A program made the translations under genes and the position numbers. A DNA stretch of 64,000 nt from a candidate division FCPU426 bacterium (lineage in GTDB: Bacteria; Oederibacteriota; JAAXVQ01; JAUVAV01). Under the pieces are notes generated by a model. That model made no database searches, had not been told where the DNA came from, and saw only the letters and a list, made by a program, of their open reading frames with translations. Positions 5,687 to 63,375 of this stretch are shown here, piece after piece. How positions within the stretch are numbered: position 1 is the stretch's first letter; each line of letters starts with the position of its first letter. The stretch lies in assembly GCA_040756875.1 (NCBI GenBank), contig JBFLYH010000003.1, positions 352,001 through 416,000 on the forward strand, written 5' to 3'.

Positions 5687-5830
5687 GGGCGGACCTCTTT
5701 CCAATGCAGATTGGTTCAAGTATAGCAAGCCTTGTTGGCCTGCCGCAACCGCTTTCCTGTTTACAAACCCGCGCCGCCAAGCCTATAATGGGCCAATTTC
5801 AGCCGTTCGACTCTCAGGAGGAACGCCCCA

Positions 5831-24441: not shown

Positions 24442-24580
24442 GATGCATTTGCGGGATTCAGAAAACAAGGATAACACCTCGCTTTTAAACCTTAAAATCG
24501 TATTATATAGTAATTAGACTCTCCGGGCGACCAGTAATTTCAACAAAATAAGGTGTCTTCGAGAAGTATTTAGGCGTGTG

Positions 24581-37854: not shown

Positions 37855-37882
37855 GTAGGGGCGTTCAATTGAACGCCCCTAC
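37855..37882. repeat. GTAG-type REP palindrome
   Basis: Perfect 28-bp palindrome GTAGGGGCGTTCAATTGAACGCCCCTAC, 18 nt downstream of the 2236-aa gene stop. Confidence 0.7.
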
Positions 37883-37900: not shown

Positions 37901-40900
37901 TTACGCCGCAGCTCCGGTCCGCAGGATCTTGCGCCGCACCGGCGGCAACGGCTTGCCCTGGGTGTCGAAGACATCCAGGAAGAACAGCAGATCGTCGCGC
38001 AGGTGGGTGTTGTAAATGCTGGCCGGCAGCGTGGTCTGGATGACTTTCCCGGAATCCAGCAGGACCTGCACAGGGAATTGCTGGAACGGCTCGATGCGGG
38101 TCATGACTTGGAACAGGCTTTCCTGGTACGCCTCGAAATCAGCCACGTCCCGCCGGCTCACTTCACGCATCAGCAGGGTGACGACGCGCTGCAGGTTATA
38201 CGGCGTGATATCGCGCTCCAGGCGGTCCAGGGCCCGCTGCAGCAACAGGCTGAAGCGCCGGTCCTTGATGGCAACCGCCACCTGGGCCAGACGCGCCGCT
38301 GAAGCCTCGGGATTTTTCAGCAGTTGTTGCTGCTCGGCCCGCAGTTGGGCCAGTTCCTGCTTGGCTTGATCCGCCGAGCGGGTCAGGTTGGCCTTAAGGC
38401 CGGGATGGGCGCCTTCCAGCTGGTTGAAGTGGCGCTGCAGGGTGGTGGCCGGCGCGAAGTAGAACATGACCGATTGCAGCTGGTCGGATTCGGAAAGCAG
38501 AGCGAACAACTCGGGATAAAGCGGCACCAGGTTTTGAATCCGCACCAGGTTCATCAGCAGTTTGAACACGCTGTGATTGGACAAAAACCGGTTAAACCGC
38601 ACGAACTGGCTTAAGCTGTATTTGAGGGAAACAGGCACCTCTCCGGGCTGCAAGGTTTCCAACACCCGCTGTTTTTCGATCAATCCCTGCAAATCCTGAA
38701 TTTGCTGCCGAAGCAAGGGCGACAGGGATTCCATGGCCCGCCGTTCCCCGAACACCACGCGCACCATCAACTGCAGGGATTTCACGAAATCAGGATGGGT
38801 GATCACGCGGAAAAGCGGCAGCCTGCGGCCTTGGCGGTCGCGGGTTCTGGCCACCTGGGCCAGCGTATCCATGACCAGCGACCCGGCCGCGAAACCCAGC
38901 AGCAGCGCCGAGACCACTTTGGCCATGCCCCGCTTCTGTTCGTGGGCGGTGACTTTCATCTCAGGGCTCCACGCCTCCACGTTCATGCGCGGCTGCGACA
39001 CCATGCGCCCCCGCTTGAAGCGATAGAAAACATCCGAAGCGAACAAAGACGGCGGCTCGGCCACTTCCTGGCCGCGCAAACGCAGCAGGCGGTTGGCCAG
39101 GGCTTTATCGCTGATGACCGTGGTCACGGCATCCAGGCCCAACAGCGCCTCGGCTTGGGCATTCAGCTGGCGGTCGGACAAGCCTTGCGCCGCTTGTTCG
39201 CCGAGCTGTTCCATCACGAATGATCTGGCCTCCTGCTGCCATTGCGTCAATGCCTCGCTCTCCAGGCCCAACTCCTCCTGCAGATCGTCCCGTTCCACGG
39301 CACTGGCTACGGATGAGGTTTCCAAGGTGTCGGCGTTGAACAAGGACTGCATGAACAGCGAGTTGAAATCGTATCCTGCCAGCGAAGCCAGCGCCACTTC
39401 GCTCAAACCGAACAACAACACGCCCTGGGCTCCGGTCCTGGCGGCGCGCTCAAGGGCGCGATATGCGGACTGGTTGAAGTCCACCACCACGCGTTCCGCG
39501 CCCTGGGCCAAGGCCGGTTGGGCCGCGGTCCGCAAGGCCGTCAAGGGCAGCTGGATGCCGGTTTGCGAGGCGGCCTGAAAGCCGACGACCGAGGTCAAAA
39601 GGTTGTTGACCTGGCCGGGCGTGCTTTGCAGCTGCTGCACGGTGGCCGCGCTGACCAGCAAATACCCTTCCAATTCGGTCTGATTGCGCATTTGCGAAAG
39701 CAGCCGTTGGTGGTCGGCCAGCAGCGCGTCCCATCCCGCTTTGCCGGCAAAGGCTTTCTGTGCTTCATCCATCTTTATGGCCGGCACTTTCACGCCGACT
39801 GTCGCTTCCCCGTTCCGGCCTATCACGACGGTCAAAGGCGACAGGTTGCTGCCTGCCTCTGACAGCACGGCCAGGCTGTTGGGCGCGCGCCAGTCCGTCG
39901 GCGCCAGGCGCTGGCCGGTGGCCGGATCAACGGGAAAGAGCGTGGTCTGAATGCGGTCGGCCAGTCCCGTGCCCACGCCTGAAGCCCGCAGGCTTTCCAG
40001 CATGGCGTCGATCCTGGCTTTCAATTGCGGGTTGTCCAATCCCAGGGTGACCGTCTGCCCGTCCGGCAATGTGTTCAACACCTGCGCGGCTTGTCCGAGG
40101 ATGTAGAGCGCCCGTTGTTCTGATAGCAATTGCTCCTTGGCCGACCCGGGCATGGCCAACCCGCCCAGCAAAGGAACAAAGTAGGATCTGCCACCGGGCA
40201 CATAAGGCTGGGTTTCGGATGGACCGATGCCCGTGGGACTCAGCGTCAGTTGGCCGTCTTCAGTCAGTCCAGCAACCATCCGGGCGGCTTGGGCAACACT
40301 GCGTCCGGGCAATTCCTGGCCAGGGACGCTCTGGTTCAATCCCTGAGTGTTGACTGCGTTCGTCCCGGTATTGACGGTGGTCTGCGCGTTCTGCGCGCCG
40401 AGTGACAATACGGGAACCAGGTTGGATTGTCCCGGCAGTCGCACCTCGGCAGGCAAAGCGAACGCGCCCGGCGGAGGCACGCCGTCCGCGGGATAGCGGG
40501 GCAAGCCGGTGAGATCGGTATCCACCAGCCCGGCAGTCTCGGCCGCCATGACGCCCGTGGCGAAGTCGTTGGACGCAACCGGCGCTTCCGAGGTAACGGC
40601 AGAAGCCGGCAGCTGGGAGAACGAAACCAATTGGGTTTCCTGGTCCTCCTTGCGGCCCGCTTCGACCATGTCCTCGTTTTTATCCATCATGGTTTGGACG
40701 AATCTGCTGGTCGACAATGTTTGGTCAGCCTCTTGCCGTGTCCTTCGCTTGGCTTCGGAACCATCCTCGCCGAGGCGTGCTGGCTGTACGGGCGCCGAGG
40801 CGACTGTTTCGCTCGTGAGCGAAAGCTGTATGACGGGCTGATCCAGTTCATGTTCAAGTAAGGATCGCAACGTCGGACGTTTGGCCGCCTTGGGTTCTTC

Positions 40901-43900
40901 GGCGCTGACCGCAGCAATATCGACAAGCGGCATGGTTTGGGCTTGAACAGCGGCAATGCTTTTCGTGCTTTTTTCAGCCGTCAGGTGAATGAGCGGCGGC
41001 ATTTCGGCGGCCGCTTCTTCGGTTGCCGGGCCTGCTAGCGGTTGCACCGGGGTTTCGCGAACCGTCACTTCAGTATCCAAATCCGTCCTCAGTTGCTTGG
41101 GTTGGTTGAGGCGGTCGATCAGACTTTTAGCCAAGAGCGCCGGGCCGGACCATAGCCACGCGTTTTGGCGGACAAAATCCATGACGCCGATCGAAATATC
41201 CTGGACCAGTCCCGCCACGGTTGCCAGCATGAAGCGGCTGGAATTGGCGTGCTGCATGGTGAACCGCAGTATCTTGTTCTCGTTGTCAAATTGTTTGAGA
41301 AGATTGAGGTAATCGTTGAAGAATTTATATTCCGCATCCGTGAGCTTGGGATCGCCGAATGCGGAAATATAGACGTGATCACGCTCGGCGGCATCCAGAT
41401 CCGCTTCCAGCTGTTGCATTTGCTGCTGTGTTACACCTTGCATCAAGGCTTGCGTCCCCAAATTGCCTTTGGCGCGCGCGCCCTCCAGCACGATCATTTG
41501 GTCGATGTTGATGGGAAAACCCAGCCGTTCCCTTAAAAGCTGATTATAAATCTGGATTTTCAGGAAATTCTCATACATATACATGCTAAAGCGGTCACAG
41601 AATGTTTCCAAAGCAATAAGAATATTGATGCTGTCTTTGGTTTCTGCGCTGGCTGGTTTGTCGGACACTTTGACCAAGGCCTTGTAAATGTTCTTTATAA
41701 ATACCACACTGGTTTGAAGGCGGGGGTCGCTGTTGATCAACCGCAAATAGCTTTCCAGATTTATCGCGCGGAGATGGTCCTGTTCATCCACAGTCAGGTT
41801 GGCGGGAATTTCATCCGGCATATGCAGCACCAAGGCATGAACGGCCTCGTGCAGAAAAGCCAGGCTGATCCAGGCTTGCAGGGTTTGGAAATCCTTGGGA
41901 GCGGTCTTCTTCTGCCATTGCTGGGCGGCGAACTTCAGCAGTTGTTCAAAGGCGGGGGCGTTTTCCTCGGCCCGGGCCAGATAATCGGGCAAGGAATCGC
42001 GCAGGATCTGGTACAAAGCATCCGGCCGCAATCCGTTCAATACAGCTTCGATATAGCGCGCCGGGATTTCTTTGTAGGGCATCTTCACATCCATCAATAC
42101 GATCCGGAAAACCATGGTGGCCATTTCATTCTGATTGCGCGGCAGTCGGAACAAAGGCTCGCTGGCGATCGGGGCCGGTTGCACGTAAATTTGCTTCGGA
42201 TCCTCGTTCACCTCTTCGTCCTTGGTGAACCAATCCACCAGCACCTGGTCGCTGAAACGGCGGAGTCCGTTGGCCTCCAGCAGCTGAAGCCAGGTCTCCA
42301 CCATGTCCTCGGAAACGATTTCGAACGCGCCCGGCACGGGCCGTTTTTGATCTCCCTCGATAAGATCTCCGAATTTTTGTTTGATCCGTTGGGTGATGGC
42401 CCGCGTGCTTTCCTGGGCCCTGAGCATGGCGAAATCTGTCCCAAACTGGGCCTGCGTGGTTTTTTCCTGGCGTATCTCCCGGCGTCCCATTAACTTGGTC
42501 ATCTGGGTGATGCCAAACACCCCGCCCATGGTCGTGCTGCCGAACAGGGTTTGCGCGTTCTGCATCATGTTCGCCGCAACAGCAGGGTCGTGCGTTTGGG
42601 GCATGAACGGCAACACTTGCACCACCTGGTCCACCGCTGCCGTCAATCCTTGCAGATGCACCGCCAGGCCGGTCCGCACGGACAAAGACACGACGATGTC
42701 GGACAAGAGCGGCATAGCCAGGATGGGGATGGCCACCGCAGCAATGGCCAGGACCCCCAAAATCACGTTGCGCTTGGTGAAGAGCCGCTGGCCGAAATCC
42801 CCGGTGGCGTTCGTGGTCACCCACCAGGCGGCCAAAAGCATCAGGCTGCCGGTTGCCACCAGCAGAGCCGGAACCGCACTCGCGGTAAATCCAAGCAGAG
42901 GCAGGACGATCCCCGCCAAGAGCCCGCCGGAAAGCAGCCACAAGGCGGAAATCCGCAGTTGGGTGGAATTGATGGCCGTCGGCCGCGCCGCATACGCCTC
43001 TACTTCCGTGCGGGAGAGAACCTGCAGGCCCTGGCGGTTGAATTGCAGGCCCATGATCGTCGATTGATCGTTCGCGCTGATCCTGACCAGGCGGTCCCGT
43101 AGGCGTTCCAGGGTCAAACCAGGCAGGCGGAGATAGGAACTGTTGCCGAGCCGTTGCAAGCCGTTCTCAATGAACCCGACCGCCCGTTGAAATTGCAGGC
43201 GGAAAGCCGGCAGCGTGAGGAAGTTGCGCACCGCCATGGCCGCCGGGCCGGCTGTTTGTTTGGCCAACAACTGCTCGAATTCGGTCGGCCTTTCCGGCGC
43301 CCGCAACAGTTCGAAATAATTGGCCGAAGACTCGGCGCGGTCCATGGCCGGCCGCAGCACCACATAGGCCTGCCCGGCCTGCCGCGCCAAATCACGGATG
43401 GCTTCGGTATGATACCCGCCGGTGATCAATACGGCCCGTTTCTCTCCGCGATCCCTGAGTCGCTGCCAGGCATTCCGGAACAGCGCTGCGTCGCGCTGTG
43501 CGGCCAGGTCGTAAAATTTCATGGCCTGCTGCAGCAGCGCCGGCAGGGTATCTAGGTCGCGGGCCAACGTGGGGTTGTCGGCCACGAGCGCCTGCAAGCC
43601 GGCAACATTCACTTCCCGGCTCAGCGCCTGATACCGGTCCAGGTCTTCGCGGGAGGCGGACACGTTCAGGATGCGTTCAGCCAGTTCCACCCACTCCTGG
43701 TACTGCAGCAATTGACTCTCACCAGGCGTCCTTATAAGCCGGGCGCGCAATTGCGCTTCCAAATGCTGCACCTGGAGGTTGCGGGAATAGTAATCCCGTT
43801 CGACCTGGCGCTCCCAGCCGCGCAGGGATTCAGGATAGAGAGGCACTTGGGCCCGCCCGGCCTCCCGCATCAGATCCCGGCGGTAGGTTTCAGAATCCGC

Positions 43901-44611
43901 GTCGCCGCGCTGGTAAAATTTGCGGCGGCGCTCGAAGCTCAGCAACGGAGCGTTGAATTGCTGTTCCTGAAGAAAATCGAGTTGGTCCAAGAGTTCCTGC
44001 ACCAAGCCCCGGTTCTCCTCGGTGGCGAATTGGCGGATCAGCACCAGGCTGCGTTCATACAAAGCCGAGTCTTCGGCGCCGAACAGTTCCAATTCCGGCC
44101 GGTCGAGAATGGCCAGCCAGTCCGCGCCGGTCAGCTTGCCCATGCGCACGAAATATTCGGTCACCGCCCTTTTGGCTGCGCTTTCCGGCATCGAGGACAG
44201 TTCCAGGGTCGGAATGATGCCGCTGCCGCCCTCGACCGCAATCAAGCGCAAGTCAGGATAACGTGCGCAAAGAGTATCCACCATGCCGCGGATATTGGTT
44301 TGAATGCCGGTATGACAGTGCAGATCTTGGATAAGAATGAAGGTCACCGGTCCGGGAAGGCCGGCTTCAGCCACGCGCCCCAAATGCGCAGGTATCTGGT
44401 ATTCCGCTGCCAGCCGGTCACTGCCCGGACCTTCCAAGCGCACTCCTTGGCTGGGCGGCAACAGGTAGCTTTCAGCATTAAAAGCAAACCCAAGGGTTGG
44501 CATAAGAAAACTCAGTGCACATGCCAAGGCGATTACCCTAATCCCCGGGTGTTTTCTTGGCAAGATAGAAAGAAACAATCCGCCAATGCTGTTTTTGTTC
44601 TTCATGGTCAT
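37901..44611 (-). CDS. Giant (2236 aa) exported/membrane protein with EreA/ChaN/Tiki-like N-terminal domain, TM cluster, HExxH region and conserved C-terminal domain
   Basis: Uninterrupted ORF with GGGGG RBS; signal peptide; IQDLHCH...AVEGG...QRDAALFRN...LITGGYH; HEAVH; paralogous to 44734-63126 at both ends. Confidence 0.85.
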   Translation of the reverse strand: MTMKNKNSIGGLFLSILPRKHPGIRVIALACALSFLMPTLGFAFNAESYLLPPSQGVRLEGPGSDRLAAEYQIPAHLGRVAEAGLPGPVTFILIQDLHCHTGIQTNIRGMVDTLCARYPDLRLIAVEGGSGIIPTLELSSMPESAAKRAVTEYFVRMGKLTGADWLAILDRPELELFGAEDSALYERSLVLIRQFATEENRGLVQELLDQLDFLQEQQFNAPLLSFERRRKFYQRGDADSETYRRDLMREAGRAQVPLYPESLRGWERQVERDYYSRNLQVQHLEAQLRARLIRTPGESQLLQYQEWVELAERILNVSASREDLDRYQALSREVNVAGLQALVADNPTLARDLDTLPALLQQAMKFYDLAAQRDAALFRNAWQRLRDRGEKRAVLITGGYHTEAIRDLARQAGQAYVVLRPAMDRAESSANYFELLRAPERPTEFEQLLAKQTAGPAAMAVRNFLTLPAFRLQFQRAVGFIENGLQRLGNSSYLRLPGLTLERLRDRLVRISANDQSTIMGLQFNRQGLQVLSRTEVEAYAARPTAINSTQLRISALWLLSGGLLAGIVLPLLGFTASAVPALLVATGSLMLLAAWWVTTNATGDFGQRLFTKRNVILGVLAIAAVAIPILAMPLLSDIVVSLSVRTGLAVHLQGLTAAVDQVVQVLPFMPQTHDPAVAANMMQNAQTLFGSTTMGGVFGITQMTKLMGRREIRQEKTTQAQFGTDFAMLRAQESTRAITQRIKQKFGDLIEGDQKRPVPGAFEIVSEDMVETWLQLLEANGLRRFSDQVLVDWFTKDEEVNEDPKQIYVQPAPIASEPLFRLPRNQNEMATMVFRIVLMDVKMPYKEIPARYIEAVLNGLRPDALYQILRDSLPDYLARAEENAPAFEQLLKFAAQQWQKKTAPKDFQTLQAWISLAFLHEAVHALVLHMPDEIPANLTVDEQDHLRAINLESYLRLINSDPRLQTSVVFIKNIYKALVKVSDKPASAETKDSINILIALETFCDRFSMYMYENFLKIQIYNQLLRERLGFPINIDQMIVLEGARAKGNLGTQALMQGVTQQQMQQLEADLDAAERDHVYISAFGDPKLTDAEYKFFNDYLNLLKQFDNENKILRFTMQHANSSRFMLATVAGLVQDISIGVMDFVRQNAWLWSGPALLAKSLIDRLNQPKQLRTDLDTEVTVRETPVQPLAGPATEEAAAEMPPLIHLTAEKSTKSIAAVQAQTMPLVDIAAVSAEEPKAAKRPTLRSLLEHELDQPVIQLSLTSETVASAPVQPARLGEDGSEAKRRTRQEADQTLSTSRFVQTMMDKNEDMVEAGRKEDQETQLVSFSQLPASAVTSEAPVASNDFATGVMAAETAGLVDTDLTGLPRYPADGVPPPGAFALPAEVRLPGQSNLVPVLSLGAQNAQTTVNTGTNAVNTQGLNQSVPGQELPGRSVAQAARMVAGLTEDGQLTLSPTGIGPSETQPYVPGGRSYFVPLLGGLAMPGSAKEQLLSEQRALYILGQAAQVLNTLPDGQTVTLGLDNPQLKARIDAMLESLRASGVGTGLADRIQTTLFPVDPATGQRLAPTDWRAPNSLAVLSEAGSNLSPLTVVIGRNGEATVGVKVPAIKMDEAQKAFAGKAGWDALLADHQRLLSQMRNQTELEGYLLVSAATVQQLQSTPGQVNNLLTSVVGFQAASQTGIQLPLTALRTAAQPALAQGAERVVVDFNQSAYRALERAARTGAQGVLLFGLSEVALASLAGYDFNSLFMQSLFNADTLETSSVASAVERDDLQEELGLESEALTQWQQEARSFVMEQLGEQAAQGLSDRQLNAQAEALLGLDAVTTVISDKALANRLLRLRGQEVAEPPSLFASDVFYRFKRGRMVSQPRMNVEAWSPEMKVTAHEQKRGMAKVVSALLLGFAAGSLVMDTLAQVARTRDRQGRRLPLFRVITHPDFVKSLQLMVRVVFGERRAMESLSPLLRQQIQDLQGLIEKQRVLETLQPGEVPVSLKYSLSQFVRFNRFLSNHSVFKLLMNLVRIQNLVPLYPELFALLSESDQLQSVMFYFAPATTLQRHFNQLEGAHPGLKANLTRSADQAKQELAQLRAEQQQLLKNPEASAARLAQVAVAIKDRRFSLLLQRALDRLERDITPYNLQRVVTLLMREVSRRDVADFEAYQESLFQVMTRIEPFQQFPVQVLLDSGKVIQTTLPASIYNTHLRDDLLFFLDVFDTQGKPLPPVRRKILRTGAAA

Positions 44612-44665
44612 ACCCCCAATAGCAAAAAACGTATTAAAATCAAACAGCTAATATATTACGTATAA

Positions 44666-44694
44666 AATATAACACTTTTCTTGTCGTATTTCAA
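44666..44694 (-). promoter_or_regulatory. Sigma70-like promoter with extended -10 for the 2236-aa gene
   Basis: TTGAAA-17 nt-TATATT with TGn preceding the -10. Confidence 0.45.
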
Positions 44695-44733
44695 ATTGAT
44701 ACTATAATAAATAACCAATTAAAATAAGCATAA

Positions 44734-53700: not shown

Positions 53701-56700
53701 CTCAAGCGGACGCTGTTGTTGTTGCGACCATTCCTCGGCCATGCGTTGCCGCAGGATCCCGCGGGCTTGCTCGACAAAGGGGCCGTAATACTGCCCTTCC
53801 AATTCCAGCAGGTAGGTGGTTTCCGGGGTGATGACGGCAATGTGCACTTTGTCCGGCCCGCTGTCCGGCGGCGCCCGGCTGACGTGCACTTCGGGCTGGA
53901 AATCGCCGCGCCCGGCCAGCACGGCCAAGCGCTGCGCCACCAGTTCGCGGAACCCCTCGGTGGAAAAGTGTTTCGGATAAATGGCGTCGTGCTTGGGTTT
54001 GTCGCCGCTCCGGAGGATCATGTTGTCCTCGTAGAGCAGTTGTTGCCGCAGCAGCTGGCGGCCGTGCGCGTCGCCCAGCACCGGGGCCTCGGCTTTCTTC
54101 TCTTTGGCCTGAATCGGCTTCGTCAGGTCGTCCACCACCACCTGGTTTTTGCCCGCATCCTTGGCCACGTGCAGAAAATCGCCAGCCAATTGATATAAAG
54201 CTTCGCTCCAGGCTTGCACCTCCGACCGGCTCAGCTCTCCGGCCGCCTGTTTCTCGACGTAGGCGAAGTCCACGCGGGAGGCTTTGGTGGCGCCGATGGA
54301 AAGCGTGGGCGTGAGGAAGTATCCCTCCTGCAGGTACCCGTATCCCTTCTGGTCAATGGGCGGTTTGAAATCTTCGGCCTCCCGGGGCCAAGCCATTTTC
54401 GTCAAATTAAGGTTTTCCAGGCGGGCGGTCTGCAACCCAGCTTGTTCGAGGCGTTTCTTGAAAATCTGTTCAAGCAAGCGGCCGTTGACCTGATCCGCCG
54501 GCACGGGCGCAAATCCCTGCAGTTCCCGCTGGAAACGGCCAGCCAGGTCGTTGCGTCCGACGCGCAGCAACAGCCGCACGCCGTACACTTCGTCGAAAGC
54601 CACCCGCGCCAATTTGGGATCGCCGTAATCCTCGTTGATTTTAGCCGCGATAGCCCGCAATTGCTGTTCTTCCTGGGGTTTCAGCCCCCGCAAATCATAG
54701 GCCATGAACTGGCGGTGCATGTTCAGCTGCACCCGGCTGCGGAACAGGCGCATGATCTCTTTGATTTCCTGGGGAGTGAAATTTTCGGGCATGAGATACA
54801 GGCCCTCGTCGCCTCCGTGCCGGATGGTCGTCACCCGGGTTTCAGCCAGCTTGGGCAACAGCTTAAAGACCTGACGGAAATGGAGCGTAAGCAGCGCGCC
54901 CAGCAGCTGCCGCCTCACTGCCTGCCGCTTCTTTTCCAGGATCAGCTTTACCGGCCTGGAATTCGCCGTCTCCTCAATGATGCCGAGCACGTCGTCCAGC
55001 AGGAAATTCGTTATGGATTTGCCGTAAATGAGGTTGTAGCCGGACAGCCCGTCGATGTCCGAAAATCCCAGCCAGGCGTCGCCGGCTTGCTCCAACATCT
55101 GCCGCCGGGCGTTTTCACCCTGGATCCGGTTGAGCATACGGTTCCGCTCGCGCGCCATGGACCACAACCGGCCGATGGCCGAGCGAACCACCCTGGACTT
55201 GCGGATAATGCTCTGCTGCGCGGTGCCGAGAACTTCGGCCAGGGTGAAATTGCCCGTGTCCAGCACCACAGCCTCCGGAATCGGGCGGAGGGGATCACGC
55301 GACCGGGTGCGGGCTGAGAGGTCCATGTTCTCGATTTCCTTCAACCCAGCGGCCAACTCCTCCTCGGTGCGCAACGGGCGCTTCAAGAGCCGTTCCGCGC
55401 GGTTCCGCAGATCGTTGTTCACCACGTAGAAGCGCATTTTGGCGTCCCGGTCGAACAGCTTGGTGCCCATGGTCTGCCCGACCGCCACTAGGTTTTCCCG
55501 TTTGGCCAGGGCGCGGAGATGGTCGTCCACCACTTTTTGGACCGCCGGAATCCGTCCCAGCCTGGAGGCCAGGGATTCGAGGCGCTGGAAATCCTCTCCG
55601 GCCGCGTTGACGGCGTTGGGCAGCACCTGGTCCGTCACTTCGCGCCGCCGCCCTGGAAAAGCGCCTTCGCGGAGGAAAACCCGCATGCGCTGTTCTCCCA
55701 AGGCGCGGTCGAAATAAACCGTGACATTCGCCTGCTGCAAACGGTCCATGACGATCTTGGTGAAGGTGGCGAAGGCTTGCTGCTCGGCGGGCGTTTCCGC
55801 GCGGAAAGCGTCCTCGGTCCAATTCCCCTTGTCGATCTCGTCCTTGACGATGAGCGCGAACGCCCGGTAATAAATAGCCGCATCCGCGTAGGTATAGCCA
55901 AAGTAGCGCGACAAGACCTCGCCGATTTCAGTTTTTCCCGTGGCATCCGGTCCGTCCACCGTGATGATAAATCGCGGTTTGAAGAAGGTCGCCACGCTCC
56001 ACAGCAGGGGCACCAGGCCCGAGCCGGCGAGCGTCACGGCGGCCGCGGGTGCGACCAGCCCGGTGGCAATGGCCCCCACGGCCAACAGGGTGGCTAGAAT
56101 GCCTATCACCCCCACGATCGCGCTCAGCACGCGCGTGGGCCAGAATATTTCCCGGGCCAGGGACTGTAAGAACGGCTGTGTGCCGAGGCTGTAGGCGGAC
56201 ACGGCTTCCAGGTCCGCCACGTTGCGGTGGTCAAGGCCCAGCACTGACTCCAGCAATTCATGCAGCAGGGCTTGCGGCAGCTGGCGGTGGGCCATGACAT
56301 TGACGAAGCCCACGGGCCCGGCCGGCGTTTCTTCCACCGTGAAAAAGGCCCCGATCTTGAGGGCCTCGGGAGAAACCGACGCCTTGGAAGTAATCTTGCG
56401 AATTTGCAGATCCGTGATGGCCCGGTCCTGGCCGTTGACCTTGACGGTCAAGCCCTGCCCGCTTTCCAGGGACTGGACCGCGGCCTGGGCTTGGTCGAGC
56501 GTGTTCTCGAAGACCGTGCCCCGCAGGCTGCGGCGCAGGCGATTGATTTCCTCGGACAGTACCTGGCGGGTATAGAGCCCGGCCCGGGTTTCGGCCTTGT
56601 GGCCGAAGGAGGCGAAAAAGGCGTTCAATTGCTCCTGATCCAGCAGATCGAACCCGCGCTGCACCAGCGTTCGCGCCAATTGCAGGGTGTTCGCGCCGGG

Positions 56701-59700: not shown

Positions 59701-62700
59701 GTAGCCGGCCAGGATTTTGGCGATCAGGCCGGCCCGGATTTCGCCGATGCGCGTCTGTTCCAAACCGGCGATGTGCCCGCTTTCGTGCGCCAGGCGGCGC
59801 AGCAGCTGCATCTTGCCGCGGTTGTTTTTCAGCTGGTCCAGGGCCTTGGCATTGAGAACCATGCGGTTGCCCTGCACCTCGGAAAACGCCTGGCCGTGTG
59901 CCAGTGCATCCATTTCACCCGATAGACGTACCTCGAACTCCTTGTCGCCGCTGGCCTTGAAGGCGGCCATGATTTCCGAGAGTTCGAACGCCGCATTCGG
60001 ATACTGTTGCAGGCGCTGCTGGAGTTCAAACCGCTCCTGCTGCTGGGCCGGCGTGGGTGCGGCGATGCGGTTCAAGAAATTCAACCGCCGGTTCGAAGCC
60101 CGGCGCTCCTGATCCAGCGTCCGCTGCGCCGCTTGCACGCGTTTCACCAACTGCGAAGTTTGCAAAATGACGCGTCCGTCGGGCCGCATCTGGAATCCCA
60201 ACAGTTTCAGGCCGTCGGTGACAATTTGGCGCTGCCCGTTGTCGGCCACCTGGCCCAGGGGCGTGGCGCGGTCCATGATTTGCTCCAGGGTCAGCGCTGA
60301 AGTCCCGGCCCCGGCCGGTCCCAGCAGGGCGTTGTCGGGTTTGCGGCTTATATTCAGGTTGATCACCGGAGCTTCGGCGACTTCCTCTTCCACCGGAGTC
60401 TCCGCGCTGCTGCCGGCCATGATTTCCTGGCTGGCGGCGGTCATGGGCAGTTCGGCGCCCTGCAGCAGATCGGCGTCCAATTGCTGGGCAAAATTCAGCA
60501 ATCCCTGGCGGATGGAAGCGATTTGAAGCTGGGCCGGGCGGAAAAATACGATCGGATTGAAACTGAAATTGGGGATCTGGACTTTCAGGTTGTTCTGCTT
60601 GGCCAACTGCCTCATGGCATCTCGCTGGCGGTCGCTGGTAAACTCCGGCAGCAGGCGTTCGGGGCTCAACACATCCTGTTCACCCAGCTCAAAACTACGG
60701 CGTCCCGCGCGGATGGCCTGGACCAACTGGGCCAAATGCGAACCCGCGCTTTTCAAATCCAGACTGTCCAGAGACGTTCCGGCCAAAACAGCCTCCGCCA
60801 GCTCCTCGGCCTCGTTGTAATCCCGCACCAGACGGTTCAGGTTGTCCGACGGCGTAACCTCGCCCAGCAGGGGTAGGCGGCCGTTCCGGAAGGCCATGCC
60901 TGCCAGCGCGAGGCGTTCGGCGCGGCCGGCAATGAAGGCTTGCAGGGTTTTGTCGTCTTTCGACAGATCCAGAACGTTTTGCAAATCCACTTCCAATTCC
61001 GTCCGGTTCACCTGGTTCTGCGCATAACCGTACTTATCCAGCGACCACAGCATGGCCCGCTCCACCAGGCGCTGCTCCGGCCTGAAATACCCGCTCATGC
61101 GGGCGGTGACAACGGACCAAAGAGTGGCCGCCGGCCTGAATAATCTTGCCAAGGCCGCAACAAGGGAGCGCGCCGCCGATACCGGCGTCAGTCCCCGCAA
61201 TCCCTGGGGCGCGCCCCAGGCAATGGCCAGCGTCCCCAGTGCCCGGGTGATTGGGTTGGTGACTTCCGCCACCTGCGCCGCAAGCCGGCTCAGGGCGAAG
61301 GCACCGGCGCGTGCAGGTTCCTCAGTGCCGAGGATCTGCGCGCGCTTCTGGGCGAACTCGTCGGCGCCTACGAATTGGAACTGGAAGTTGTTGCCGTAGA
61401 GCACTTCCCCGGACAGCTCCGTGGTGTAGGCCGTGGTGGCGTTGGGTCTTACGACCACGTACCACCCGGCCTCCTGATCGAACTGGAAGACAAAAACATT
61501 AGCCGCGGGATTGGATTGCTCGGGCCTGAAAACCAGGCTGACCTTGGCGTCGTCCTCGGGATAGTTCCCGCGCGCCTCGCGGAACGCCTGTTGCAGGGCA
61601 TCGCCGGCAAGCTTGTCTTCCAGCACCAATTTGCGCCCCAACTCGATCTCCCAAACCGTTTCGAGATAGCGTTTGAAGACGGGATTGTTGAAAAGGCTGC
61701 GGGGAGCGAAAATATTTTCATTGCGGGCCAGCAATTTCTCCAAGGGGGTGCGCTCATTGCGCAGCAGCGAAAAATAGGGGTTGGCGACGTCCGTACGCGT
61801 CAGGCGAGGTTTAACGGTCAGGAACGAGACTCCCTGGGTCCGCAGGACGTTTTCGACATGCGAGGCGTGAAAACCGCCCGTGATCAGCACGGCCAAGGAC
61901 GTCTGGTTCTTGCGCATGGCCTGCATCAGGTTTTCCACAAAAGCCTGCGAACGCTGATCAGCCACGCGGTAGAAATCCGCGGACAGGTCGAGGTATTCAA
62001 CCAGCTTGAGTACACCCGGGTCCAGATCCGGCTGCAGGGCGTACCGGTAACTGACGTTTTCCAGAAAATGCAGCATGGACTCCAGCGTGAAATCCTCGCG
62101 GTGGCCTCGGAAGTAGCGCAAATCCTCTTCGGTCGCGCTGATGTTGATGAGGTTCTCCATTATTTTCAGGACGTACAGCTGATGGTCCAACTGGCGTTGC
62201 TCGTCGCTGGTGTACAAGCGCTGCCGGACAGCCCGGTCCAAAGCCTCGGCTTCATGCAGCAGACGTTCGTAGTCGACCACCGCGTTCACGGGCAGCCGGT
62301 GCTCCAAGGCGTACAGGCGGATGACTTTGTACGGTTCCAGTTCCACTCCCAGCCGGTTGGCTTCAGCCAGCAGGAAATCGCAATACTTTTCGAGCGTCTG
62401 GTTTTCCTGGTCGAAATTCTCTCGTTCATGGTCCATTTTGGCCAAATCCGTGCTGTAAATCGGGCGTTTGAGTTGTTCGAGGGCAAAACGCAAATCCTGG
62501 CAGTAGCCCTGGCTTTCCTCGTTCAGGAATTTCATCAGGGTGTTCTGGTTATGATCATAGAGCGCCTGGGATTCAATGCCCTGCAATACCAATGGTTCCG
62601 CACCCGTGGCAGCCTGGTATTCCGCTCCGGTTATGCGTCCCCGCTGGAGGAAGTACTGTCCGACTTTGTCCTTGACCGGCGATAAGGGGATACGGGCAAG

Positions 62701-63126
62701 TTTGTCGACATTCACCGGCGTGCTCTCGCCTTCCACGCCGACCACGCGCAGACGGTTTTTCCTGCCCAGTTCCGCCAGCATGGCTTGGATGTTGCTTTGC
62801 ACTTCATAATTGCAATGCAGGTCCTGAATATACACCACGGTTTTTCCCGAAGCGCCCTGGTAACTGCTGGTAACGCGCCCCCATTCAGGTTTGATTTCGA
62901 TGGATTGCCCGTTGGCGGCCAGCGGGGTATAGCGGAATTCCTCGATTAAACTTTTCGGATAGGTGGCCGGCTCAAATGCGAAGGCTACGGAGGGCCAGAT
63001 GAATCCCAGGGATATCATCAAGGCCAGGGTTTTAGCGATTGGCAGGCGGCCAGGACGGCGCCAGGCATCCAGACTGGCTACGGCTGGCACGGGTGTTTGA
63101 GCTGCGGATGGTTTCATCGAAGACAT
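44734..63126 (-). CDS. Giant (6130 aa) multidomain exported/membrane protein: EreA/ChaN/Tiki-like N-terminal domain, 2 cytidylate-kinase-like, GGDEF-like, HAD-like, multiple HExxH/E motifs, several TM clusters
   Basis: 18.4-kb uninterrupted ORF with AGGGAG RBS-like sequence; motifs IQDLHCN/VEG/GGFH, IITVDGPDATGKT, IRHGGDEG, TDWTGT...ATGR...GENGA...GDS...ND, IITMGGPSGTGK. Confidence 0.88.
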   Translation of the reverse strand: MSSMKPSAAQTPVPAVASLDAWRRPGRLPIAKTLALMISLGFIWPSVAFAFEPATYPKSLIEEFRYTPLAANGQSIEIKPEWGRVTSSYQGASGKTVVYIQDLHCNYEVQSNIQAMLAELGRKNRLRVVGVEGESTPVNVDKLARIPLSPVKDKVGQYFLQRGRITGAEYQAATGAEPLVLQGIESQALYDHNQNTLMKFLNEESQGYCQDLRFALEQLKRPIYSTDLAKMDHERENFDQENQTLEKYCDFLLAEANRLGVELEPYKVIRLYALEHRLPVNAVVDYERLLHEAEALDRAVRQRLYTSDEQRQLDHQLYVLKIMENLINISATEEDLRYFRGHREDFTLESMLHFLENVSYRYALQPDLDPGVLKLVEYLDLSADFYRVADQRSQAFVENLMQAMRKNQTSLAVLITGGFHASHVENVLRTQGVSFLTVKPRLTRTDVANPYFSLLRNERTPLEKLLARNENIFAPRSLFNNPVFKRYLETVWEIELGRKLVLEDKLAGDALQQAFREARGNYPEDDAKVSLVFRPEQSNPAANVFVFQFDQEAGWYVVVRPNATTAYTTELSGEVLYGNNFQFQFVGADEFAQKRAQILGTEEPARAGAFALSRLAAQVAEVTNPITRALGTLAIAWGAPQGLRGLTPVSAARSLVAALARLFRPAATLWSVVTARMSGYFRPEQRLVERAMLWSLDKYGYAQNQVNRTELEVDLQNVLDLSKDDKTLQAFIAGRAERLALAGMAFRNGRLPLLGEVTPSDNLNRLVRDYNEAEELAEAVLAGTSLDSLDLKSAGSHLAQLVQAIRAGRRSFELGEQDVLSPERLLPEFTSDRQRDAMRQLAKQNNLKVQIPNFSFNPIVFFRPAQLQIASIRQGLLNFAQQLDADLLQGAELPMTAASQEIMAGSSAETPVEEEVAEAPVINLNISRKPDNALLGPAGAGTSALTLEQIMDRATPLGQVADNGQRQIVTDGLKLLGFQMRPDGRVILQTSQLVKRVQAAQRTLDQERRASNRRLNFLNRIAAPTPAQQQERFELQQRLQQYPNAAFELSEIMAAFKASGDKEFEVRLSGEMDALAHGQAFSEVQGNRMVLNAKALDQLKNNRGKMQLLRRLAHESGHIAGLEQTRIGEIRAGLIAKILAGYQLGIADYTAEIGNVNRRAILGETVELPLAAVGPASEIALTDGERETMSTWFNARGWTEVSIDTLATYTGGLSAGQLESLVPGRTTEKTHQDGVKLLAQLSQALAGMDSRFYSGADLLETFKLTLQGLSLDAAVTKHIQDLKTYAQDVVPAEFSAYETARAPIRTTDGVRELVRMAFDGEEGLALTPALTLMVERVASDEAAKFTEANYAVEFALNFDARAAAVLKDLPVALQPQARQLLQATLDKALASQPGTMAKLIDRKLQTQVPTPEAAIGALRDFGRFFRSNFQETGFADQADAVRNSLRRIGQDLLRQTASQQVIRLFGNKAPPSQEELSRFLPADYPLPFLADKLANDPRFQQIFSQYTSQAVWFLGNATKTQGYVTALKQLQDAANAAQSRREAIRGNLQQALDQIAWFFDTADWAEVEQMALALYRMQYARNLADSLKVPLEQVASDRSLASQTALAAELNIVADELAALRQAQGGQTASLARLAQAAHEQAVAALPQTRPLALVGPRRAGRVVEDEQKQLMAGVRQAFNTALQQYQSGKYQRTRLIELLDEAEQLMATLVNRYSDDPDVLALQGNLTEQKRLLVQTLNFEDFARRNPEYVKALDSLKQQVRDTTGTVGWSDFLTYAAASGQIVSRGGVPHATYSNPNADNIAQAQFAGYMRVAMINGQTVLCVDNGSSHYQRPGFRGAEAQFLAGIRGMRQALAALGFTQVALFPGHALEGMTRFDPSQIVGVIDLKNGQARASKDIATPVEIEGFEAVETRAADLQPESPAEYAEYIRSRAEAAANAVRPFLAKAEDAAAVEAYLRGLSPENFEVRTTERISGALAVHRQAGGKLQVIAERQLEGDLKKSTILHEAVEAALRSQGIAEAHALAFVVEQELAPESLRAKLSQTTHYDEVHLRNVVANTADVISAVDREPGGTPALKQRQKENALLVARVARSLLQEQQRVRALALDRRGFYGEETQSALSTLLAVFLNSQKELRDRLFKQIPGANTLQLARTLVQRGFDLLDQEQLNAFFASFGHKAETRAGLYTRQVLSEEINRLRRSLRGTVFENTLDQAQAAVQSLESGQGLTVKVNGQDRAITDLQIRKITSKASVSPEALKIGAFFTVEETPAGPVGFVNVMAHRQLPQALLHELLESVLGLDHRNVADLEAVSAYSLGTQPFLQSLAREIFWPTRVLSAIVGVIGILATLLAVGAIATGLVAPAAAVTLAGSGLVPLLWSVATFFKPRFIITVDGPDATGKTEIGEVLSRYFGYTYADAAIYYRAFALIVKDEIDKGNWTEDAFRAETPAEQQAFATFTKIVMDRLQQANVTVYFDRALGEQRMRVFLREGAFPGRRREVTDQVLPNAVNAAGEDFQRLESLASRLGRIPAVQKVVDDHLRALAKRENLVAVGQTMGTKLFDRDAKMRFYVVNNDLRNRAERLLKRPLRTEEELAAGLKEIENMDLSARTRSRDPLRPIPEAVVLDTGNFTLAEVLGTAQQSIIRKSRVVRSAIGRLWSMARERNRMLNRIQGENARRQMLEQAGDAWLGFSDIDGLSGYNLIYGKSITNFLLDDVLGIIEETANSRPVKLILEKKRQAVRRQLLGALLTLHFRQVFKLLPKLAETRVTTIRHGGDEGLYLMPENFTPQEIKEIMRLFRSRVQLNMHRQFMAYDLRGLKPQEEQQLRAIAAKINEDYGDPKLARVAFDEVYGVRLLLRVGRNDLAGRFQRELQGFAPVPADQVNGRLLEQIFKKRLEQAGLQTARLENLNLTKMAWPREAEDFKPPIDQKGYGYLQEGYFLTPTLSIGATKASRVDFAYVEKQAAGELSRSEVQAWSEALYQLAGDFLHVAKDAGKNQVVVDDLTKPIQAKEKKAEAPVLGDAHGRQLLRQQLLYEDNMILRSGDKPKHDAIYPKHFSTEGFRELVAQRLAVLAGRGDFQPEVHVSRAPPDSGPDKVHIAVITPETTYLLELEGQYYGPFVEQARGILRQRMAEEWSQQQQRPLEEVLADPVLERTLDETMASYVIATRDGVNYNRFKLVNDAIGYTAGDQMIGLPHLILDLNGLNLLRQPGRMNRKLPGVLSELEKEINDPQSGNQAHVVLTAVFSEMPTKQAAKRGLGRLFSDLRVASMAKQGKITAYQPTLRQPALVTQMGLAVTRLQGMFAEPGAQRRMVEEVEAAETAPRTRGFRPRSLFLMLFALIAAGFMAVSTPNVSAWAQGAQPNIRVDTEQVELIKKAPATRSYSLALEGRQQQLEVPVEAGDRAVSSHMTMTSPLGSHVALILEKTSADIDKFRAAKVRAQALVKKQLARLQGQEEPADPREINTWRSLDRTLSALNPGEVQLHAPVTLEGQELGAFLVNGRTYVPAGHLNDPELLAYDLVHENLHPAVRSAYGQIGDNAEENRVLKFGVDAFGSMLKVSLGFGETGLQISVHSIDPNLSADNPEIERAIQGALLAAWRQILEQKAQGQTVDQDFANALSLEMEKRGMPIPTQLEAKPGQGGFITAPLAGVLTGASAVVAGTTAIIATGTATLLTGGLVAAGILLILGMGAVITGLPTRTTLSKLAKVVNPAGFARLAKRVIDFIRGNPMIVLLAAIGIYSLLAQHPAEGGVIFAAAGMVVGPGDKKTQVENKVAALVRAHPELAAVVPQLTEALLRHQEHLKTANKFESLHAALKGLKDYDAAVIVQLIADRPQYFVHFVQVLENYQRKGGFADFAEVQLFIGQMNRMIQRTGQNAARLLSLLASNRQLAAIRDRGIEAVADMVDELGLDALSRLEQQIKESAQEQYFLAYESLQVARYLERIIDAATAPVLICENVAYGMFVTQPLKQHIQEYAAQKGKQVEFIRTRARSGMSHTNPPYIADRLFYREDADARMAPEDDITPQILRRLMTEAPHVVVLDGSKNQRYPDGFQQFSNLSVLLNSVLNPGLPSQDVLELSKKSRASHAEEALRDRNNRELLARLRELKPGATQVVYDVQYWTPDGRALPTRRDKIFDSLQRNYENFRERPGQREIILINATVNNASIPLWLRKFMAMDAPEMGRKDHRPGYFEDFYAFANKTFYARVQELFGKLRRQQPTREAEAVPALDPIRPDLNLSPAQVLNIFFDAMTAVLLTQRGAPVAVDERDGRTELLPTSKLLALLPEVERKMWEERLGQTYKGMLTDWTGTMEEKDIAQALQEGKYVGLATGRIMTASSMAKTIKQLQAYGATEQDLERLRIYGENGATKWQVRSGQPVEDAAYRRTLQPGDINLLEQLLASYPDKKVSEGQGYFNVSCRSRDKAFELARFITRQFPRLQRQYAMYVEGKDLRIYPWDVTKRRAAEDMAADLGIDTTELFLAGDSVGSIFDNDLPLVADSGFNVGSVRSPLWGVSVRRALNQPLNAMAATRALLARVRILRADEFQARPARAAPVASPLDGTPDEIRDFLERRLAWRGPHGAFVNDLMQALYSLGSPWRSQRMLRLTRAMIIAWLADRYSEVLPELSTVMDQFGLTEAERLFVLRSAEEHVLTTLSGEFFKDRPLETTLAYFWNRLLQTKEKRDAEIASVAQTASQPEGRTPRLGERGTASLSLVMGLAGGSFLAVGLGYLIYTAVFLGAGTAALFGAGAVLLGVGLLAGAAAFLSAFQKLRLRVAALRETAWPVLRRHLQRAVDFVRGNPMIILLAAIGIYALLNQQPAGGQFILAAGMVGGLGKDTIVRDRYKIPQRVSGQRRVEKLLSDGEPAALAVAEIDSFSDLKDIYGQDIAEFIYEKTLQILQGYLGRNIFFFRPENTSARFAIATKLRNDKEFSRLLQDVQSYLFYSFNRRYRVVTLQYFDLDNQARTISERDFNIRLSQLRNAVREFGHGAVGITEGRQVHVVYEISAQKDLQHALEVAGILQPSGTSADTLAAMPFEVESKIGLHAGYLYVPKLSMGVAGAEAYDKALAQVPTRQGEVRSQMPGRDLFRVLEKAATDALAAFARPLGGEIVFAVNLEQEANGQAQEAKEFISPEWSLLNFNIRNDQIFQRWFVNTAQRLASESDDKLAAIDALRQLYHDNQEALEDMDFDYLGVIFLNARQVIEEMRQMGHYALPDAERKFWEITLLWEQRHGGGMVDQYLDRHPELRPAMARLRRLIDPARREKEMERLREDLRSFADQVDLDMLVAPGRVKEPFSILMNFLRYWNKAMPAKPDFSDTDIYNERNVKKIVDDVVGTLLVIPHVDQIEKAVNQLIPYLEAHGYRIKVVDGQKAAGVNVSITQGADGRIKIEQITDGYFDVKIKIAPVDPMAFGAEIKILPNFLDESATRPGYTLVKQDVIKAVDWIITMGGPSGTGKIEAAWKLAQSLSYRVIDVGLVYRGIVSVYEKFLAAGKADSFEEFVKRAKFRLTAEGLTADYNRKGAAKETMAFNRNELAGETTESSELTVGAKIFRDQRQLLDTLVSRLVQNSAQKGRVIVVGQTPEQYVKRTDIRVYFDLTAKDRKSTEPQSRMPVPTDALIISPETQKSASRTVRMIEQMIADTIMSRGIVRQAVLGRKNGDYQALSLRNTLVVAAVWIGILSLGLGLPLLPSLGLGLLYPSAKLATAFRLLRAKYGFPGLLRHVGEPVGAYDPKIEKMVDPQTGAVLGEADWPIAWHEGFSHAAAQRLLRVFGINMASMPTGTFRYALVAGLAEFLTHTLDTLTAPMAFARLRTGPRWDAVVLSGVFLTSGLLLAASFFVALPAAVPVALGAVFALAGLSVAGFRGVLAPRAAEPADAETAAGTTAEAQPLQEIIATVRQDQNLGVTAQPGTTVWQRLRLRFVESGLGRAIIQMRGLPAGLKLMLLLPRPQNNFWGRAAVIGLSLAAWAGISLALVNGAGVNMAASFVLTGLTVLAPGFAFQYRLRTMAATPASRAIARSAWLEQIVLALNRSRDSVQVSLLLQELLGVLNEVKDDPVAREAVLDILSSLPSNQKNVTLQMADGSQFSRQLPMAVLEKPNLLIRFKRIFPVIKIDNQIWEAPQPRQRRAVDSAA

Positions 63127-63239
63127 GAGGAGACGACTCTCCCTTCCCTTACGCTGCGGGTTCCATGCCCTTTTCGATAAAAAGGCAGCCTGAAATGGGA
63201 AAACCGCAGACTATTTCCCTTATATATTATTTCAATTTT

Positions 63240-63268
63240 AGTATAGCACAGGGTTTCATGGATCGCAA
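63240..63268 (-). promoter_or_regulatory. Sigma70-like promoter with extended -10 for the 6130-aa gene
   Basis: TTGCGA-17 nt-TATACT with TGn preceding the -10. Confidence 0.5.
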
Positions 63269-63375
63269 ATCAGGGGGCCGATTTCCAGGAACCGCCGAAA
63301 TCCGCTTCAATTTAAGGCCTTTTTCGGCTGGCGTTTCAACTTGTTGTAACCGGGCAAATAGCTTGATCCATTCTT

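Follow-up and report, generated by a model that had tools for sequence, protein, structure and literature searches.

Giant proteins that start with a signal peptide, cross the membrane and join many enzymes in one chain have been described in Omnitrophota, as 'Archaeovorins' by West-Roberts et al. 2023 (bioRxiv 10.1101/2023.11.21.568195) and as the 'multi-enzyme metabolic cluster' class by Nielsen & Lui 2026 (bioRxiv 10.64898/2026.06.07.730766); according to the available text of PMC12057145, such giants are common in Omnitrophota, Elusimicrobia and CG03. In the available parts of the two preprints, the size class was set at >30,000 amino acids (aa) and at least 10,000 aa, respectively (overall >10-147 thousand aa, kaa), the West-Roberts giants were given a SecA_DEAD-like domain with glycosyltransferase, NUDIX and methyltransferase content, and N-terminal regions were reported to be without identifiable domains except C39 or S8, a shared head or tail going unmentioned in those parts. 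Here, a 64,000-nucleotide (nt) stretch from a candidate division FCPU426 bacterium (GenBank assembly GCA_040756875.1, contig JBFLYH010000003.1, positions 352,001 to 416,000 of the forward strand; 'the window') was analysed, which carries two adjacent giant genes coding for a 2236-aa protein (P0001) and a 6130-aa protein (P0002). The genome under study is termed G000, and other P, L and G numbers denote relatives. P0001 and P0002 are encoded by intact genes and belong to a very large family of modular mega-proteins that have a conserved frame in common, read from the translations as a Sec-type signal peptide, a head of ~430 aa, a neck and a tail of ~115 aa ending in small residues (Ala-Ala here).

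The preliminary description of this DNA had found no named class to which the pair belongs. This has to be revised, the kind of protein being that of the Omnitrophota giant multi-enzyme signal-peptide/transmembrane proteins, here in another lineage. The Omnitrophota giants likewise have a signal peptide, many transmembrane helices, strings of normally free-standing enzymes and little sequence conservation between proteins, and the same head was found on Omnitrophota-labelled proteins and on the SecA_DEAD (PF07517) carriers P0055, P0062, P0218 and P0257. The pair shares with them the signal peptide and/or many helices and lies outside their size class and phylum (2236 and 6130 aa). In comparison with the Omnitrophota giants, the present family is shorter (2.2-12.5 versus >10-147 kaa) and belongs to a Firestonebacteria/Goldbacteria-like order with 7-44 matches per genome. 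As to enzyme domains tiling the polypeptide, P0002 holds only Cytidylate_kin twice and a sub-threshold GGDEF and P0001 none, while relatives with the same head hold many; Pfam/NCBIfam scans of both proteins revealed no SecA_DEAD, glycosyltransferase, NUDIX, methyltransferase or dockerin domain. No description of the head or tail was found in the literature on giant or large proteins of Omnitrophota, Firestonebacteria and Goldbacteria and on Omnitrophota TraB. The kind of protein has thus been described already; the identity of the head and the signature of the tail appear to be new.

The pair had also been set apart from RTX/MARTX, CdiA, autotransporter and NRPS proteins, which was borne out by Pfam/NCBIfam searches at E ≤0.01, where neither P0001 nor P0002 showed a signature of these families or of Rhs. 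MARTX is comparable in logic only, with its conserved N-/C-terminal frame, exchangeable cassettes and internal releasing protease; in contrast to MARTX, the present family is without RTX-type repeats, cysteine protease domain and toxin effectors, and has transmembrane modules throughout and housekeeping-type cargo.

The gene pair and its common frame

P0001 and P0002 are encoded by co-oriented neighbours on the minus strand, with frames open from start to stop and zero internal stops (Table 1). A contig built by a different assembler, from the sole sequencing run holding this DNA, spans 43600-63400 in one piece with 0 differences; as this run is the probable source run, the contig represents the same reads and no independent data. 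The spacer between the genes is 122 nt long and AT-rich, and the promoter scan that detected a site within it gave 7 sites against 2.5 expected. The preliminary description had proposed a promoter-like sequence for each gene, and one was located upstream of each, as consensus matches only. The public record of P0001 is a 2178-aa product (P0224) that starts 58 codons downstream and thereby loses the conserved signal peptide (window 44438-44611); the ATG at 44611, judged on the aligned translations, matches the family better than the P0224 start.

BLASTP of P0001 against P0002 yielded a sole significant segment, residues 18-471 versus 25-485, at 30% identity and E 2e-43. The N-terminal domain suggested earlier to extend over ~400 aa was thus confirmed over ~450 aa, and the signal-peptide strings quoted for both starts were found in the translations. 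At the signal-peptide junction, a proline at -6 and a small-x-Ala motif followed by Phe-Glu are conserved, the proline being present in 176/214, the alanine in 183/216 and the phenylalanine in 167/215 relatives. The start reads as a signal-peptidase-I site, where the precursor would be cleaved.

Alignment of the nine heads of G000 revealed 45 invariant columns, including P45, A50-F51, Q101-D102-L103-H104-C105, E132-G133, R392 and G417-G418-x-H420 (P0002 numbering). Among 257 heads aligned to the profile, H104 (249/249), E132 (251/251), R392 (230/230) and H420 (230/230) were invariant over non-gap positions, and D102 was found in 244/249. The spacing is D102-x-H104, with E132 28 residues past H104 and 28 residues from R392 to H420. 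An AlphaFold model computed from the alignment (mean predicted local distance difference test score, pLDDT, 76) showed core strands at 83-131 and 411-440 and a helical insert at 187-405; the parallel beta-sheet core flanked by helices, which is the alpha/beta fold of the TIKI superfamily, is seen in this model with moderate support. When the model was compared with 48,161 PDB representative chains, the five best were HopBA1 (VIA Z 9.7), ChaN (9.4), BcR135 2qgm (8.9), EreC (8.7) and BcR135 2rad (8.4), with 159-189 residues aligned at a root-mean-square deviation of 3.6-6.0; RRSP (Z 6.0) and PMT (Z 5.9) scored lower.

According to the available text of PMC6254334, PMT, HopBA1, BcR135 and ChaN are structural neighbours of RRSP within the TIKI superfamily, the RRSP active site is linked to the erythromycin esterase family, and the site is formed by 2His/2Glu (E3900, H3902, E3930, H4030) with a conserved basic residue, R4001. 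The head carries the corresponding set with Asp for Glu at the first acidic position, a mapping that rests on residue order, spacing and position after strands. Spacing in RRSP is 28 for H3902-E3930 and 29 for R4001-H4030, as compared with 28 and 28 in the head. The predicted head fold is thus like that of the TIKI superfamily (Tiki, TraB/PrgY, GumN, erythromycin esterases, ChaN, HopBA1, RRSP), from whose members the head differs in the Asp, in a ~220-aa helical insert that splits the core, in the absence of a sequence-level match to any Pfam, NCBIfam or PDB member, and in its fusion to kilobases of cargo. Taken together, the residue pattern and the model suggest that the head belongs to the TIKI/EreA/ChaN superfamily, as a distant member that is probably active. 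The fixed processing modules of the preliminary description find a counterpart in so far as the head resembles a TIKI-fold hydrolase of the processing type whose catalytic-type set is invariant; the effector part of that proposal found no support, as discussed below. In the ESM Atlas, the head retrieved only unnamed Omnitrophota clusters of 500-560 aa. The first 650 aa of P0001, a TIKI-type domain followed by a transmembrane cluster, presumably resemble the TraB/PrgY layout.

Heads of ~530 aa also stand alone, in seven loci of Omnitrophota or Planctomycetia records (L075, L080, L081, L083, L084, L086, L087). The apparent in-frame stop after such a head is an ordinary gene boundary (TAA, AAGGAG, ATG). 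In five of the seven (not L075 and L087), the preceding ORF (open reading frame) of ~680-920 aa has an outer-membrane-protein-like end, GGQYRF/GGLYRF, and in L075, L081, L084 and L087 a signal-peptide protein of 453-855 aa ending ALIAA/ALVAA lies downstream. The notion that these Omnitrophota operons represent a split head and tail was rejected, as hhalign of the ..ALIAA ends against the tail alignment gave a probability of 0.2%. In the head of one relative, the GGxH motif, there GRYH, is closely preceded by an in-frame TAG (L066:3982-3984); a pseudogene or a sequencing error is likely.

At the C-terminus, pairwise comparison of the P0001 and P0002 tails showed no significant similarity. Profile comparison by hhalign of seven P0001-type with six P0002-type tails gave a probability of 98.3% and E 1.3e-14 over 113 columns. 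The ~110-aa C-terminal homology proposed earlier is accordingly real but weak, being significant by profile and undetectable pairwise. The model of the last 140 aa reached a pLDDT of 79.5, with low pLDDT and no secondary structure over the last ~15 residues. Structure comparison revealed no clear relative of the tail: the best VIA Z was 7.5, to helical parts of pre-ribosome proteins, and Foldseek returned nothing at E ≤1e-3.

An Ala-Ala C-terminus, preceded by RRxxR-like residues, was found in 7/8 complete paralogs and in 11/11 of P0003-P0013; genome-wide, AA ends 58 of 2668 stop-to-stop ORFs of at least 300 aa (2.2%, family members counted in). Of the 256 relatives fetched, among which many sequences cut short at contig ends were retained, 112 have AA, 27 SA and 10 SV as their last two residues, and in 165 the last residue is A. 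C-terminal Ala-Ala degradation tags of the ssrA type are read by ClpX, ClpA and FtsH in the cytoplasm and by Tsp/Prc in the periplasm. As in such tags, and as for Tsp-type recognition, the tail ends in a small non-polar dipeptide after a flexible stretch, in sequence and model alike; it differs in being a genome-encoded part of a conserved folded domain. Sorting signals of the PEP-CTERM, LPXTG, GlyGly-CTERM and T9SS (type IX secretion system) C-terminal-domain types were not recognised in the tail, which had no NCBIfam match and consists of helices and two hairpins followed by a basic, non-hydrophobic end, ...RRxxRxxxxAA.

Several other observations concern C-termini. The only match in G000 to Peptidase_S41, the tail-specific protease type, is at G000:C3:344751-345242 (-), ~7 kb before the window start and not adjoining the giants. 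A 6963-codon frame without head at G000:C2:1078294-1099185 (+), with a membrane anchor start, a long acidic low-complexity region and no BLASTP match to the paralogs, ends ...KLKTTGSAA, and a tail of similar kind, with GGAV at its end, is found on the ORF upstream of L014; to judge from these ends, the tail motif may serve a second kind of giant protein. G000 has 37 stop-to-stop ORFs of at least 1500 aa, of which at least 10 headless ones end K-[VI]-A-[LV]-[IV]-[KR]-like (KKVALIK, KIFLVR), which we take to be reminiscent of T9SS-type C-terminal domains.

Table 1. Positions of the giant genes and of their features in the window.
Feature	Position	Strand	Content or basis
Giant gene P0002, 6130 aa	44734..63126	-	Signal peptide, head, neck, cargo cassettes with transmembrane modules, tail
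Promoter-like site upstream of P0002, weaker, TTGCGA-17-TATACT	63240..63268	-	Consensus match only
P0002 signal-peptide region, residues 1-50	62977..63126	-	Basic n-region, hydrophobic core, P45, A50/F51, VAFA/FE
P0002 head, residues ~53-480	61687..62970	-	Predicted hydrolase, ~220-aa helical insert; D102, H104, E132, R392, H420
P0002 neck, residues ~481-883	60478..61686	-	Kept in cargo-less homologs
HESGH motif, P0002 residues 1114-1118	59773..59787	-	Motif scan; inside recurrent module A (923-1178)
Cytidylate-kinase domain 1, P0002 residues 2388-2638	55213..55965	-	PF02224, E 1.1e-20; P-loop GPDATGKT intact
HENLH motif, P0002 residues 3520-3524	52555..52569	-	Motif scan
Transmembrane linker module copy 1, P0002 residues 3638-3760	51847..52215	-	Hydropathy, module profile
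Transmembrane linker module copy 2, P0002 residues 4704-4829	48640..49017	-	E 3.5e-37 to copy-1 profile
Weak GGDEF-like stretch, P0002 residues 4853-4926	48349..48570	-	E 3e-4, 21 bits, below Pfam cut-off 23.8
Cytidylate-kinase-like domain 2, partial, P0002 residues 5443-5577	46396..46800	-	PF02224, E 2.9e-6, 27.6 bits versus cut-off 26
P0002 tail, last 140 aa, ending ...RQRRAVDSAA	44737..45156	-	Five helices, two beta-hairpins, basic disordered end
Promoter-like site in spacer, TTGAAA-17-TATATT, TG upstream	44666..44694	-	Good sigma-70-like match; consensus match only
Giant gene P0001, 2236 aa	37901..44611	-	Signal peptide, head, 3-helix transmembrane cluster, ~1250-aa cargo, 1 transmembrane helix, tail
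P0001 signal-peptide-like start, residues 1-43, LGFA/FN	44483..44611	-	Translation and head alignment
P0001 head, residues ~45-471	43199..44479	-	Same family as P0002 head; BLASTP, head alignment
P0001 transmembrane cluster, residues 552-646	42674..42958	-	Hydropathy only
HEAVH motif, P0001 residues 921-925	41837..41851	-	Motif scan
P0001 single transmembrane helix, residues 1895-1918	38858..38929	-	Hydropathy
P0001 tail, last 140 aa, ending ...VRRKILRTGAAA	37904..38323	-	Ortholog alignment, profile match
Terminator-like hairpin directly 3' of P0001, 12-bp stem, 8 G-C pairs	37855..37882	-	Consensus match only

Cargo cassettes and distribution of the family

The middles of the two proteins are as unlike as had been claimed, since BLASTP gave nothing significant outside the head and iterated (jackhmmer) profiles of the P0002 modules A, B, C and D found no match in P0001; continuous homology through the middles was seen by neither approach. 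For three P0002 modules, 22-33 occurrences were counted in 8-10 relatives and none in P0001. A transmembrane linker module other than the one present in two copies (Table 1) is found once in P0002 and four times in a 12,426-aa paralog. The cargo of P0001 and that of six homologs is without a Pfam domain, and for P0001 NCBIfam gave none either; the ESM Atlas offered named clusters, an ImmA/IrrE-like one included, at only 0.75-0.76, which was too weak to be used. HExxH motifs are found 10 times in the family against ~1 expected, an excess that gives a motif-level hint of metalloprotease-like modules.

Homologs of P0002 range from 1125 aa, with head, neck and tail and no middle, to 6775 aa, with a middle of up to ~5000 aa. 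P0003 (5800 aa) is collinear with P0002 at 74%/60% identity and misses residues 3317-3637, and P0004 (3443 aa) retains P0002 residues 10-1658, 5658-5863 and 5886-6130. P0005 to P0010 (3595-6775 aa) keep the head and carry P0002 modules in other order or copy number. In the L014 ORF, P0228 and P0177 (1144, 1128 and 1125 aa), P0002 residues 17-883 are joined to ~5830-6130, and an L028 ORF of 1344 aa consists of only both ends of the 12,426-aa paralog. P0109 (1162 aa, head 88% identical) was rejected as a cargo-less allele, being a truncated fragment collinear with residues 1-1193 that has no tail. From such alignments between orthologs and paralogs, cassettes are seen to have been gained, lost, duplicated and reordered within a conserved frame.

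The fixed ends around exchangeable middles that had been proposed are therefore found in the P0002 homologs, which keep head, neck and tail while middle blocks are deleted, duplicated or reordered. For the 2236-aa type, the idea of a polymorphic platform finds no support, as P0001 is conserved in length instead: orthologs found with its last 400 aa in four other genomes have open frames of 2282, 2198, 2324 and 2200 aa, and the type is conserved in sequence as well (63-75% identity). G001, G002 and G003 retain the tandem order, in which a P0001-type gene of constant length comes after a gene whose length varies; in G003, this first gene codes for 1144 aa. The two giant genes of the window form a conserved tandem, with the first gene highly variable in length and the second constant.

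A profile search for paralogs with conserved ends and variable middles, as the preliminary description had suggested, retrieved the head in nine ORFs and one contig-edge fragment of G000 (3.22 Mb, 7 contigs). Complete head-bearing ORFs measure, from the first start codon, 2236, 6130, 1256, 2611, 8793, 10,037, 12,426 and 12,520 aa, and two more head-family ORFs end at contig ends (1103+ and 4321+ aa). The family totals 61,433 codons, or ~5.7% of the genome. All-against-all BLASTP showed the head to be common to all nine head-bearing ORFs, with otherwise few shared blocks. A second tandem pair consists of the 12,426-aa gene and, after 179 nt, the 2611-aa gene.

Beyond G000, the head profile matched 15/31 genomes including G000 itself, namely 14/14 others of the same order with 7-44 matches each, and 0/16 genomes from other families of the phylum. 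Close heads in named records are from Ca. Firestonebacteria, Ca. Goldiibacteriota and unclassified metagenome-assembled genomes, distant ones from Omnitrophota, Planctomycetia and Endomicrobiaceae. Among 1.84 billion cluster representatives, 9,519 matched the head at E ≤1e-3 and 5,811 at E ≤1e-30; of the 150 best hits listed, 149 have a match that begins no further than ~40 residues from the N-terminus, the exception being P0182 (residue 106). Searches by protein size covered 3371-10,728 aa and, with the head alone as query, 747-2130 aa. The 106 head-bearing proteins of 3371-10,728 aa contain, according to Pfam, enolase, TPI, PGK, PGM and PPDK-type domains, FBPase, ROK kinases, methyltransferases, HATPase_c, protein kinases, NUDIX, HD, adenylate kinase, PEPCK, isocitrate lyase and malate synthase, with SecA_DEAD in two.

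Neighbouring genes

The genes around the giants are of the housekeeping type (AlaRS, PriA, CoaBC, Gmk, YicC). Downstream of P0001, at a distance of 123 nt and after its terminator-like hairpin, lies a ClpB-like AAA+ gene (window 35198-37777, -) coding for 859 aa with Clp_N, two AAA modules and ClpB_D2-small. The same gene is found 3' of the P0001 ortholog in two of four relatives checked (88% and 72% identity), and a second ClpB-like gene of G000, on C1, shows 47% identity. Three S8 subtilase genes, all on the minus strand, are at window 3806-5728, 27609-29258 and 33591-35198, two of them with a C-terminal FlgD_ig-like domain, and a weak PorV-like ORF (E 4e-4, below cut-off) is at 26656-27612 (-); going by these domain matches, they are possible secretion-linked proteases near the giants. 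Between 22001 and 26000, the GC content is low (0.49-0.52 versus ~0.62 elsewhere); this stretch holds ORFs without Pfam match at 21834-23216 and 23428-24477 and a PD40 beta-propeller protein at 24581-25744.

Membrane topology and possible role of the frame

Hydropathy, a crude measure, revealed 8 hydrophobic clusters in P0002 and 3 in P0001 besides the signal peptide, and such clusters are spread along every family member in G000. In the cargo-less forms, the signal peptide is the only strong hydrophobic segment, so that head and tail are both expected to be exported. For P0001, the parity of the helices (3+1 after the signal peptide) would place the cargo inside and the tail outside.

As a whole, we consider the description of a frame-and-cassette family with an exported-hydrolase head to be fairly probable. 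The N-terminus would be exported, and the head would thus act, as a hydrolase of the peptidase or esterase type, on the outer face of the inner membrane. The transmembrane modules would thread the cassettes through the membrane and tether there enzymes that are normally cytoplasmic, such as cytidylate kinases, and in the cargo-less forms the tail would lie on the same side as the head. Given this description, the most likely role of the frame, which we propose tentatively and with less confidence than the description itself, is that head and tail are handles for maturation or quality control: the head would cut a peptide or ester bond of its own mega-protein or of a sibling, and the [A/S][A/V]-COOH end would be a tag for a C-terminus-binding protease. 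The occurrence of cargo-less forms of 1.1 kaa and of 6-12 kaa forms at the same locus implies that cargo has been added to a self-sufficient exported frame. A more specific proposal, 'polyprotein export', in which the head is a maturation hydrolase acting in cis or in trans, the [A/S][A/V]-COOH tail is its partner signal and the Sec-exported frame releases or positions enzymes at or across the inner membrane, is in our estimate unlikely.

Several results weigh against the frame-and-cassette description with an exported-hydrolase head. On the head itself, VIA Z scores of 8-10 are only moderately over background, Foldseek with the head model returned nothing at E ≤1e-3 (best EreC, E 0.011), Pfam/NCBIfam showed no family at E ≤0.01, TraB_PrgY_gumN, Erythro_esteras and Cofac_haem_bdg included, and the head profile matched 0 chains of the PDB sequences at E ≤1. 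The tail has only a weak link to the main paralog group (12 tails; hhalign probability 69% and 76%, E 4e-5 and 2e-5). A short-motif scan of the 61,433 aa revealed no recurrent junction motif that would mark cleavage sites, nothing but head motifs being enriched; R-S-E-x-R, a candidate for such a motif, was seen once against 1.4 expected. On topology, helix counting and the positive-inside rule are in conflict: positive charges past the last helix of P0001 argue for a cytoplasmic tail, contrary to helix parity, and cytidylate kinase 1 follows a two-helix-like hydrophobic stretch of 49 residues, so that, unless a helix has been overlooked, an enzyme that uses ATP would lie on the exported side. 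The same topology difficulty is raised for the Omnitrophota giants in the available text of West-Roberts et al. 2023 (bioRxiv 10.1101/2023.11.21.568195). Finally, no RNA run is listed as holding the window DNA, the only holder being the probable source run.

The alternative that survives best, which we rate as somewhat unlikely, is that the mega-proteins are never cut and serve whole as membrane-tethered arrays of enzymes and regulators. The head would then act on an envelope or external substrate, be it an ester, a lipid or, as has been proposed for TraB/PrgY, a signalling peptide, and not on the mega-protein, and the tail would fold or dock. Such a scaffold fits the transmembrane modules, which occur over the whole length of the proteins and recur as conserved units in their own right, the lack of an enriched junction motif, and the stand-alone heads in Omnitrophota and Planctomycetia operons, whose existence indicates that the head is functional without cargo. 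It leaves unexplained, however, the near-universal small-residue C-terminus and the HExxH excess in the cargo, and the place of cytoplasmic-type enzymes relative to the membrane is still inconsistent.

An effector role had been suggested in the preliminary description: the ends would be trafficking modules and the middles effectors for delivery to host or prey. Conserved ends around exchangeable middles and the multicopy nature of the family would fit such a platform, predation was proposed for related Omnitrophota giants in the available part of West-Roberts et al. 2023, and MARTX, with a TIKI-fold effector, follows a comparable frame-plus-cassette logic (PMC6254334, as far as its text is available). 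Nevertheless, we hold it to be improbable. The cargo here and in the 106 relatives is of housekeeping type (cytidylate kinase, enolase, PGK, TPI, PGM, methyltransferases, with kinases and regulators) and includes no toxin families, the transmembrane segments along the full length would impede release, and RTX, CdiA, autotransporter, Rhs and NRPS domains are lacking. Furthermore, no small immunity-like genes follow the tails, the next gene being ClpB-like, the P0001 type is conserved and not diversified, and the genes lie amid housekeeping genes.

That the giants are assembly chimeras or long open frames that are no genes, to which the metagenome-derived genome and the absence of a listed RNA run could point, is close to refuted by the unbroken contig of the second assembler over the 6130-aa gene (albeit probably from the same reads), the collinear orthologs on independent contigs and in other genomes, the catalytic-type residues invariant over 257 sequences and the 9,519 cluster representatives matching the head.

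In Omnitrophota and neighbouring candidate phyla, few features are as poorly understood as the giant multi-enzyme membrane proteins. Many of these share the one head with its fully conserved TIKI-type catalytic set, and many also a tail with a fixed small-residue end, which provides two concrete handles that can be mutated, namely head activity and tail recognition; the natural length series narrows the possible mechanisms. If polyprotein export were true, with nucleotide kinases as cargo here and glycolysis in relatives, these uncultured lineages would possess a metabolic compartment that lies beyond the cytoplasm or within a partner cell.

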